Positions 54,385 to 56,486 of a DNA stretch of 64,000 nucleotides are shown here, piece after piece. How positions within the stretch are numbered: position 1 is the stretch's first letter; every line of letters starts with the position of its first letter. The stretch is from a virus. The notes beneath the pieces were generated by a model. It saw only the letters and a program-made list of their open reading frames with translations. It was not told the DNA's origin and ran no database searches. Both the position numbers and the translations under genes were made by a program. The stretch covers positions 19,431 to 83,430 of the IMG/VR virus record IMGVR_UViG_3300031857_000091; one strand, written 5' to 3'.

Positions 54385-55786
54385 TGTTGTTTTCTATTGA
54401 ATTAGGGAAATTGTACAGAAAAATAGATTGCAGTAGACAATCTCTAATTATTTTCCAATCATGTTCTGTTGCAAAGAATAAATCAATTTTTTCTGGGAAT
54501 AGTTTAGACAAATTCCTTTTGAAACTAAACTCGTTAGTAGGAGATTTCAATAAGTAACAAGTTTTAACTCTTAAACTGCGATAATTGGGAGTAGCTTTTT
54601 TTATTTTTTTGCTTTTGACATAAGCTTCCCACGCGGCTTCACTTAAAAACAATACTTCTTTGTAATAACTATCCCCGTGTTCTTGAATAAAAGACTTCAG
54701 AGTTTGTTTTTCGTAATATTGTTTCGTTAACAAAAATTGACCTAAATTGTAATGCCAATCGTTATTATTAATTAAATTCTCGGCAATAAATCCTAGCAAA
54801 TGAGATGAACTGATAAAAGTTTTTTCCTTTTCAGAAACTTTTGCTGAAGAATCAGTGTTAACAACTCTGGCTGTGTTAGGAATAGACAGGGAGAAAGCCT
54901 TAAAAAGCTCCCTGGTTTTATTATTGGTTGTCGGTCTGACAACTTTTTTCTTGATAAACCTCTGCTTTGAATTCCATTTTTGAGTACCTAAGACATAAAT
55001 CTCTTTTTCGAGTCCGTCTATATGTTTTTTGTAATGCGGTTGACAAGCAAAAGATAATAGAGCATCTCCAAATGATGAATAAAAAGAAAAAAGTAAATTT
55101 CTGGGGACTTTTGTCTCTAGTTGCTTGATTAAGTCATAAGGCTGTATTAAGACCATTCCTTTTCTTGCCCCTAAAGAATCATTGGATAATGAAACTATCG
55201 GCGCTTCTAGTGGGAGAAAAAACAACAAAAGAAATTTCTCTATTGATTCTAGGTTTTTCTCTGGGTTATGCTCATCCAATATCATTCCAGGAAAATTATT
55301 ACTTTTTATCTGGACTTTAGAAGCGAAAGTACCTTGTTGGGTAAACAATGCGGAAATAGCAGATGTGTAATAACAATCACTGATAGCTCTAGTTGTGGCA
55401 TGAAACGGAATGTTATCATTTCCAATAGTAAAAGTAAACTCTTTTTTTTCTCCAGTAAATTTCTTATGAGTATTATGTTGAAGAAAAGAATATAACAACC
55501 CTTCGCTAAAAACATACTTTTCTTCATCAGTCATCTCAAGACAAGGGGAGTTGATTAGCCCATCTTGAATAGAATAAGCAAACTTATTTAAAACGCTAAA
55601 AGCTATAATGTCGCTGCACTCATACGAAAGATTGATATGCCGAGGCTCAATTGAGTAAGTTATCTGATTTGGAGCTAATAAGTTTAGGCGATCGCCATAA
55701 TTTAAGGCTTTGGCAAGTCCCAAGATTCCTATCTTGTGTGGTAATAAATAATCTGGATTATCTAGCGAAAACATAAAGTTATTCAT
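54368..55786 (-). CDS. cas8: Type I-B/MYXAN large subunit Cas8 (Cas8a1/Cmx8-like)
   Basis: HKIGILGL, SFLQHN, FLLLFFLP, LGTQKWNSKQR and IAENLINNNDWH motifs; position between cas6 and cas7. Confidence 0.8.
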   Translation of the reverse strand: MNNFMFSLDNPDYLLPHKIGILGLAKALNYGDRLNLLAPNQITYSIEPRHINLSYECSDIIAFSVLNKFAYSIQDGLINSPCLEMTDEEKYVFSEGLLYSFLQHNTHKKFTGEKKEFTFTIGNDNIPFHATTRAISDCYYTSAISALFTQQGTFASKVQIKSNNFPGMILDEHNPEKNLESIEKFLLLFFLPLEAPIVSLSNDSLGARKGMVLIQPYDLIKQLETKVPRNLLFSFYSSFGDALLSFACQPHYKKHIDGLEKEIYVLGTQKWNSKQRFIKKKVVRPTTNNKTRELFKAFSLSIPNTARVVNTDSSAKVSEKEKTFISSSHLLGFIAENLINNNDWHYNLGQFLLTKQYYEKQTLKSFIQEHGDSYYKEVLFLSEAAWEAYVKSKKIKKATPNYRSLRVKTCYLLKSPTNEFSFKRNLSKLFPEKIDLFFATEHDWKIIRDCLLQSIFLYNFPNSIENNNESYQ

Positions 55787-55839
55787 TGTTAGTTATCTCA
55801 TCTAAAGAATTCACTCACCATTAGGTAGTGGAGTGTCAA
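55787..55839 (+). mobile_element. 53-bp right-end remnant of the IS200/IS605-type element
   Basis: TGTTAGTTATCTCATCTAAAGAATTCACTCACCATTAGGTAGTGGAGTGTCAA matches 28740-28792 with 2 mismatches; follows TCAT. Confidence 0.9.
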
Positions 55840-56486
55840 TCAAACCACCCACATCCCATGTGTCTTTTTCCCCCAATACCTTGTACTTTTAAAGCAATAG
55901 ATTCCTGATTGCTTAAATTATTAATCTTGACTCCGTAGCCAATGTATGTAGTTTTGTGAGAATCTTTTTCTACGGTCATTATTGTATGGTTAGTTGCATT
56001 CCACGTGTTTTCTAACAAGAGCGGTTCTTTATCGATGTTGAGTATTGATAACTGTTTTTTGCAAGAGGCTAAAAATCTTTCTTGAGAATTTATTGTGTTC
56101 CAGAAAGGATATTTAATAATAACCATTTCTGAAATCAAGCTTTTTTCAGGACAAAGCGGGAGAATTGTTGCCTCATAAATAAAAACCTTGGTATTCCCTA
56201 TTGAAATAATTTGCTCGTTTAATGTTTTTTTTAACTCTGCAAGATAATCATGTGGTCCTCTAATTTTTAGTTTTGACTTGTTTGTAATGATTGTCCCGTA
56301 CCTAAAAGGTTTCCCAGATATTCTAGAAATATTAACATCAATTGGAAAATTTATATCAACTAAAAGTCCTGGATTTTTATCAAGAATCTTTCTTTTGAGT
56401 GCCGAATAAAGTTTATAGCCATGGTCAGCATTTATTCTATTCCCAATTACTGAGAAGAATAATTCAACAATTTCTAACTTTGCCAT
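55836..56486 (-). CDS. cas6: Type I-MYXAN Cas6 (Cmx6-like) endoribonuclease
   Basis: ADHGYKLYSAL; C-terminal QGIGGKRHMGCGWF glycine-rich loop. Confidence 0.93.
   Translation of the reverse strand: MAKLEIVELFFSVIGNRINADHGYKLYSALKRKILDKNPGLLVDINFPIDVNISRISGKPFRYGTIITNKSKLKIRGPHDYLAELKKTLNEQIISIGNTKVFIYEATILPLCPEKSLISEMVIIKYPFWNTINSQERFLASCKKQLSILNIDKEPLLLENTWNATNHTIMTVEKDSHKTTYIGYGVKINNLSNQESIALKVQGIGGKRHMGCGWFD

Follow-up and report, generated by a model that had tools for sequence, protein, structure and literature searches.

The cas6 and cas8 genes of a phage-borne Cascade operon are parted by a short spacer in the 64,000-nucleotide stretch of viral DNA analysed here (the window; bases 19431-83430 of the 83,430-bp IMG/VR record IMGVR_UViG_3300031857_000091), and we consider it probable, at a rough probability of 0.8, that this spacer is the dead scar of a protein-less transposon of the IS200/IS605 family, a palindrome-associated transposable element (PATE) of the cyanobacterial TnpB/IS1341-type group. 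The 49-nt gap from the cas6 stop to the cas8 start is the sole spacer within the operon, since the cas8/cas7 and cas7/cas5 pairs both overlap (Table 1). The 53-bp remnant at this junction corresponds to the final 53 nt of a 396-bp repeat with two full copies in the window, agreeing at 51 of 53 positions with one (28740-28792, plus strand) and at 50 of 53 with the other (9129-9181, minus strand); a dinucleotide-shuffle control for this match returned 0 matches. An earlier note on this DNA, made from its sequence alone, had read the spacer as what is left of an IS200/IS605-type element after trimming to its right end, with TCAT, the complement of ATGA, as the target, and sequence comparison agrees. 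It had also stated that the spacer equals the last 53 bp of the element; the match is real, but the two are not strictly equal. Excision of 55787-55839 in silico yields GGG TGG TTT GAA TGA overlapping ATG AAT, so the ATGA stop-start overlap that such a deletion was said to restore does reappear, as it does at the junctions of relatives (below). The two substitutions specific to the remnant, 55811 C>T and 55820 T>A, both lie in columns that are at least 90% conserved among 26 aligned family members, and this apparent decay at conserved right-end positions fits a right end released from selection.

Empty, remnant and apparently filled forms of the junction

Sixteen Cas8 homologues, 53-99% identical, all begin at the same Met in the alignment. 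Two metagenomic loci that span the junction, L004, with Cas8 86% identical and 5.3 kb of colinearity with the window, and L007 (76%), are without the insert. Their junction reads ...TGGTTTGAATGAAT..., their cas6 ends GAA TGA (Glu, stop), and the empty junction, TTTGAATGAAT, is an ATGA stop/start overlap. In addition, a contig of a diverged strain from an independent sequencing run (run X6, record 17) skips exactly 55787-55839. The expectation that related phages carry an empty ATGA junction is thus borne out by both loci and by the X6 contig. The more distant relative L006 (36%) has a 14-nt cas6-cas8 overlap and a GGGAGG Shine-Dalgarno (SD) sequence. In the Cas8 homologues P0001 and P0004 the cas8 gene seems to start with TTG, and the junction, which we infer to read ...TTTGAATAAC..., is 4 nt shorter; judging from these two, the cas6/cas8 overlap would vary by a TGAA unit among strains.

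Contigs from four public runs, belonging to four studies (2019-2025), were placed on the locus. Each of the four runs has a contig that spans the remnant allele with 0-5 differences (X4 record 8, X6 record 16, X8 record 23 and X10 record 1), and the allele is therefore no assembly artefact. Its persistence across these studies also shows that the remnant allele is not strongly deleterious. A 91-nt contig from run X4 (record 9) has a different structure: cas8 bases 55742-55786, with 2 differences, run directly into CGGAAAAATGGGTAGCAACCCCGTCC..., which is a typical left end of the element. This contig suggests a full, or at least left-end-bearing, insertion at the same site, and in this way it speaks for the earlier proposal that an insertion preceded the 53-bp form. 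A 40-nt contig from the same run (55812-55850, one difference; its letters were not read) may be the matching right-end/cas6 junction. The empty and remnant alleles are directly observed, and the full allele is suggested.

The parent element and its family

The two full copies of the repeat (Table 1) are 98% identical, and each follows TCAT and ends in TCAA. Copy 2 splits its Bro-N gene in frame, and homologues of about 245 aa read VGE(Y/F/H)DLIDG straight over the site; precise excision of this copy would restore a Bro-N protein of about 245 aa. A metagenomic Bro-N homologue, P0017 (98%), is intact and has TCAA in place of TCAT at the site, and Phe rather than Tyr. Copy 1 lies with its left end right against the ATG of a small hydrophobic open reading frame (ORF; 28263-28396, minus strand, MITFFARFIAG...), and at 2 of the 3 insertion sites in the phage the left end lies directly on an opposite-strand start codon. 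No target duplication is present, as shown at the DNA level by comparison of the empty and filled cas junctions, and as the in-frame joining of the Bro-N halves also indicates. The phage carries neither tnpA nor tnpB, and the interior of the element has no coding remnant.

Both ends of the element match TnpB-encoding elements of about 1.3 kb that occur widely among cyanobacteria. Plasmids of Calothrix brevissima carry a match to its first 45 nt, preceded by GTCAT, directly upstream of a gene annotated as 'IS891/IS1136/IS1341 transposase', and a match to its last 39 nt directly behind an 'IS605 OrfB' CDS. A search of genome contigs with a left-end core pattern matched more than 120 stretches, and among the 80 matches listed all are from cyanobacteria or metagenome-assembled genomes (MAGs). 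Of the 118 cyanobacterial copies analysed, 117 have TCAT directly at the left end, as do 3 of 3 sites in the window, and the bases farther upstream are random. A strict right-end pattern found nothing in genome contigs. When a right-end pattern was paired with the left ends, two size classes emerged: six elements of about 1.3 kb and nineteen protein-less elements of 360-445 bp. The long elements encode a complete TnpB, with HTH_OrfB_IS605, OrfB_IS605 and Cas12f1-like TNB domains (4 of the 6 were scanned), and in them tnpB runs from the left end to the right end. One short element, L064 (444 bp), is 82% identical to that of the window, interior included. Another feature of this locus (L064:2104-2300, minus strand, on a MAG contig) is an extra 45-nt hairpin-rich block located 5 nt upstream of the point at which the remnant starts, which hints at a possible modular boundary between interior and right end.

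Over their last ~140 nt, most of the short elements are like the TnpB elements at the 3' end, where omega-RNA scaffolds lie, whereas the element of the window is so only over its last ~35-57 nt; an Rfam search came up empty both at the gathering threshold and at E<=10. The left-end hairpin is CCGTCC-loop-GGACGG, the right-end hairpin is imperfect, and there are no terminal inverted repeats. Across the family the right-end hairpin shows compensatory changes at 6 of 9 pairs, with 92% of cells paired as against 32-50% in slid controls, and TGTCAA is invariant in the 26 aligned right ends. By the definitions applied here, these features would make the 396-bp element a non-autonomous IS200/IS605 element, i.e. 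a PATE (PMC3119063, PMC10055086). We also considered a group I or group II intron and rejected it, as the element ends in A and has no GUGYG.

The family may favour a particular kind of site. The ATGA opposite the left-flanking TCAT opens an outward ORF of at least 60 codons in 51 of 109 genomic copies (L011-L130, redundant genomes included) as against 19% of control ATGA sites, which suggests that members often lie exactly at start codons or at in-frame Met codons.

A history for the remnant

In the history that we favour, a host TnpA presumably mobilised the parent element, which would have integrated 3' of TCAT on the plus strand, the complement of the ancestral ATGA overlap of cas6 stop and cas8 start. 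A deletion within the element, beginning right at its left-end boundary, would then have taken the first 343 bp (positions 1-343), and the last 53 bp, comprising two small right-end hairpins and TCAA, would have stayed. The cas8 ATG itself is unharmed; it now stands 49 nt past the cas6 stop and is parted from the G-rich SD-like stretch that lies ahead of it in the relatives. Translation of cas8 would proceed by SD-independent initiation or by re-initiation across the spacer, and the scar would be tolerated rather than functional. The remnant is unable to transpose because its left end is lost.

The deletion starts at the left-end boundary; the exact point is ambiguous by 1 nt, or by up to 3 nt (TTG) if the left end of the parent began with TG as in copy 1. 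A deletion between CAT/CATT direct repeats was rejected, since it predicts one T more than is seen; only TTG or a single T fits. We favour a microhomology-mediated deletion (1-3 nt) over an enzymatic origin.

Several points weigh against this history. Evidence for the full-insertion allele comes from a single 91-nt contig and from the 40-nt contig with unread letters, and no one molecule shows the left-end and right-end junctions together. It would be a strange chance for random slippage to end exactly at the left-end cleavage site, and the deletion could instead mean aberrant excision catalysed by TnpA. Finally, a relay of very short reading frames leading towards cas8 (described below) may be adaptive, in which case 'merely tolerated' may understate the role of the remnant.

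The flush left boundary keeps an enzymatic alternative in play, although we regard it as unlikely: TnpA might have cut immediately after TCAT and at a cryptic internal site, removing the first 343 nt, or repair during TnpB-triggered homing might have been interrupted after copying only the right end. The left deletion endpoint lies within 0-2 nt of the left-end cleavage site, the piece that was kept is exactly the conserved right-end module, from the first right-end hairpin to TCAA, and the block in L064, 5 nt upstream of the same boundary, suggests a modular junction. However, the GCATT that precedes the internal breakpoint is no TCAA-type motif, and a cut after GCAT leaves an extra T. Nor has a TnpA or TnpB been identified for the element (none is in the phage, and Y1 TnpA was not sought in hosts), and core deletions of such elements mediated by repeats or microhomology are documented (PMC3119063).

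What the remnant supplies to cas6 and cas8

The complement of the terminal TCAA contributes T and TGA, so that cas6 now ends GAT TGA rather than GAA TGA (Glu216Asp, E216D); L006 likewise has Asp there. That the remnant provides the cas6 stop, as the earlier note had proposed, is therefore correct. Its companion proposal, an RBS-like stretch (a ribosome-binding site) for cas8, fares otherwise. Pairing with the anti-SD in the 18 nt upstream of cas8 is -2.7 kcal/mol, no better than the random-site median of -2.4 kcal/mol (for a generic anti-SD, which may differ from that of the host), compared with -11.6 kcal/mol for the ancestral junction in L004 and L007 and -10.2 kcal/mol in L006. The ancestral SD-like junction sequence now lies 53 nt farther upstream of cas8. 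Initiation without an SD would nonetheless be normal in this operon, because cas6, cas7 and cas5 are also without one (-1.6, -0.3 and -0.3 kcal/mol).

The remnant was also said to supply a hairpin, and one is present, although it is weak and mutated at conserved positions. On the mRNA strand the right-end hairpin folds at -9.2 kcal/mol in the remnant and at -12.1 kcal/mol in the full copy. Both remnant substitutions weaken it, and one of them replaces a C-G pair by a U-G that no other family member has at that place. Compared with its shuffles, the 91-nt junction RNA is not unusually stable (z = -0.49), and its minimum free energy (MFE) structure leaves the right-end hairpin unused. No promoter-like or terminator-like sites were found within the remnant. 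A further suggestion, that the Cascade mRNA carries a TnpB-type RNA end, is contradicted by strand: the remnant is oriented plus, the cas genes minus, and tnpB in the long relatives runs from left end to right end, and the cas mRNA therefore holds the complement (antisense) of an omega-RNA 3' end.

The substitution at 55820 (T>A) has one further effect, in that an AUG arises from it on the mRNA strand and begins a seven-codon mini-ORF (Table 1) whose UGA overlaps the AUG of a 2-codon ORF (55801-55793), which in turn ends 6 nt ahead of the cas8 AUG. Among the 159 possible substitutions in the remnant, 8 create any AUG and 3 create this mini-ORF arrangement. The chain was noticed post hoc, and it could restore some of the coupling between cas6 and cas8.

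These observations bear on the idea that the remnant is a selected regulatory module, providing a new cas8 RBS and a hairpin that tunes Cas6:Cas8 stoichiometry or serves as a processing site. The allele is widespread and stable across the four independent studies, the derived substitution yields the mini-ORF chain, and the cas genes are intact: cas6 and cas8 both have complete reading frames, with ratios of nonsynonymous to synonymous substitution (dN/dS) against L004 of 0.12 and 0.14, respectively (dS 0.36-0.46). That ratio spans the whole lineage, not the time since insertion. With no more than 4-6% of its positions differing from the full copies, the remnant points to an insertion that is young relative to the divergence of the window from L004, and dN/dS therefore says little on the period since insertion. 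Selection for Cascade expression, which the earlier note invoked to explain repair of a polar insertion by deletion, is accordingly not supported by these ratios. The near-random anti-SD pairing, set beside the ancestral value, the unremarkable fold with its unused hairpin, the two hairpin-weakening substitutions at conserved positions and the lack of a terminator-like site all count against a regulatory module, and a simple k-mer scan of the record gave no CRISPR repeat with which a Cas6 substrate could be compared (the short repeats that follow cas5 in L006 do not look like CRISPR repeats). We judge such a module to be improbable. Taken together, what the earlier note saw and the history it drew from it largely hold; its proposals on function (the RBS, the tuning hairpin, Cas6 processing and the TnpB RNA link) are either unsupported or contradicted.

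A more speculative possibility, to which we attach quite low credence, is that the scar is a selected, drive-resistant allele that avoids omega-RNA-guided cutting and whose translational coupling has been partly restored by the mini-ORF relay. The omega-RNA of a full copy, with the 3' end of cas6 as its guide, would direct host TnpB at co-infecting phages with an empty TCAT plus target, and such cutting would penalise precise excision. A deletion that keeps the right end would place TCAA, rather than the transposon-adjacent motif (TAM) TCAT, beside the target and so make it uncuttable, and it would also remove the left-end hairpin and the 343 nt sitting on the cas8 start. The later mutation at 55820 would then have built the relay that partly restores cas6-cas8 coupling.

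Finally, an independent insertion of a right-end-only mini-element is highly improbable, for although the boundaries are exact on both sides (after TCAT and after TCAA) and 52-bp terminal-only forms in Haloquadratum are suspected of being mobile (PMC3119063), the 53 bp are without the left-end hairpin or guide needed for IS200/IS605 excision and integration (PMC10055086), no second solo 53-bp copy is present in the 83-kb phage, and in run X4 a left end abuts the same cas8 ATG.

Comparison with known systems

The closest likeness to a deletion scar is found in Haloquadratum walsbyi, where core deletions of HqIRS46 and ISHwa23 leave terminal-only stubs of ~52 bp, the left and right palindromes there being alike enough to form 19-22-bp direct repeats, between which the deletions occurred (Dyall-Smith et al. 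2011, PMC3119063). Both there and here the elements are protein-less IS200/IS605 derivatives with no inverted repeats and no target duplication, and an internal deletion leaves about 52 bp where another strain has, in the present case apparently, the complete element. The Haloquadratum stubs have both termini fused, whereas here only the right end remains, the left-end hairpin has no relation to the right-end one, and there is no more than 3 nt of microhomology; the setting also differs, being a cyanophage and a gene junction inside a cas operon. Core deletion of IS200/IS605 elements to ~52-bp stubs is thus known, and this case is a further example and no new mechanism.

With the PATE-like and IS1341-type TnpB elements of Meers et al. 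(2023, PMC10055086) the element shares conserved ends, a 5' TAM (here TCAT), a terminal transposon-encoded motif (TEM; here TCAA), scarless insertion, protein-less copies that rely on enzymes in trans, and ~1.3-kb relatives with TnpB. It departs from those TnpB/omega-RNA elements in that the 396-bp element of the window resembles TnpB-element 3' ends only over its last ~57 nt, and the remnant, having lost 343 nt together with the left end, is immobile and is no guide-RNA gene. Like IS608 and ISDra2, the element is inserted strand-specifically 3' of a tetra- or pentanucleotide and has imperfect subterminal hairpins, and its right end is TCAA as in IS608. The target here is TCAT, however, rather than TTAC or TTGAT, and no Y1 transposase is identified (a host partner was not sought).

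Although the general pattern follows from known transposon biology, natural phage populations seem to contain one IS200/IS605 site in three states, empty, apparently full and a 53-bp stub, and the site is inside a phage-borne, Cas3-less Cascade operon. TCAT mirrors the common ATGA stop/start overlap, so such elements land between coupled genes with neither ORF damaged, and a later deletion leaves a small permanent spacer, which is useful to bear in mind when odd intergenic spacers in phage operons are annotated. In this respect the locus serves as a natural experiment on how the genes of Cascade operons are translationally coupled.

The operon and its surroundings

Table 1. Positions of the remnant, the full element copies and the cas genes, numbered along the window.
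Feature	Position	Strand	Remarks
Solo right-end remnant, 53 bp	55787-55839	+	End of protein-less 396-bp IS200/IS605-family element
TCAT target motif (TAM)	55783-55786	+	Complement ATGA; 55784-55786 is the cas8 ATG
Terminal TCAA of element (TEM)	55836-55839	+	55838-55836 (-) is the cas6 TGA; 55839 is the third base of GAT (Asp)
Subterminal right-end hairpin	55810-55832	+	Family covariation; slightly degraded in remnant
Seven-codon mini-ORF	55798-55821	-	AUG from 55820 substitution; post hoc observation
Full element, copy 1	28397-28792	+	TCAT at 28393-28396
Full element, copy 2	9129-9524	-	Interrupts Bro-N antirepressor-like gene 8639-9772; no target duplication
cas6	55836-56486	-	216 aa, Cmx6/MYXAN type; PF09559 3e-36; TIGR02807 98.8 bits
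cas8-like large subunit	54368-55786	-	472 aa; TIGR03485 2.8e-19, under its cut-off
cas7 (DevR/Cst2)	53512-54384	-	17-nt overlap with cas8
cas5 (DevS-like)	52994-53515	-	ATGA overlap with cas7

The record is estimated to be 68% complete (CheckV) and has a G+C content of 36.6%; it contains 32 copies of the cyanobacterial HIP1 octamer, GCGATCGC. Against type I-B / I-MYXAN families, Cas7 scores 106.5 bits (cut-off 72.75) and Cas6 98.8 bits (cut-off 98.85), and Cas8 and Cas5 score under their cut-offs. No cas3, cas1/2, adaptation genes or CRISPR array were found across the 83-kb, 68% complete record, the array having been sought by a simple k-mer scan. Neither the operon nor the 396-bp element had a match in the phage collection searched, and scans of viral contigs with Cas8, Cas6, a Cas8 alignment and the right-end and left-end patterns gave no relatives.

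At least 16 related operons occur in freshwater metagenomes, with the same synteny and an adjoining GH19 lysin gene. The region downstream of the cas operon is flanked by a 405-bp inverted repeat (88%; window 1-405 and 51404-51808) and by clusters of repeats that contain CATCCGTYAACC (window 52079-52572).

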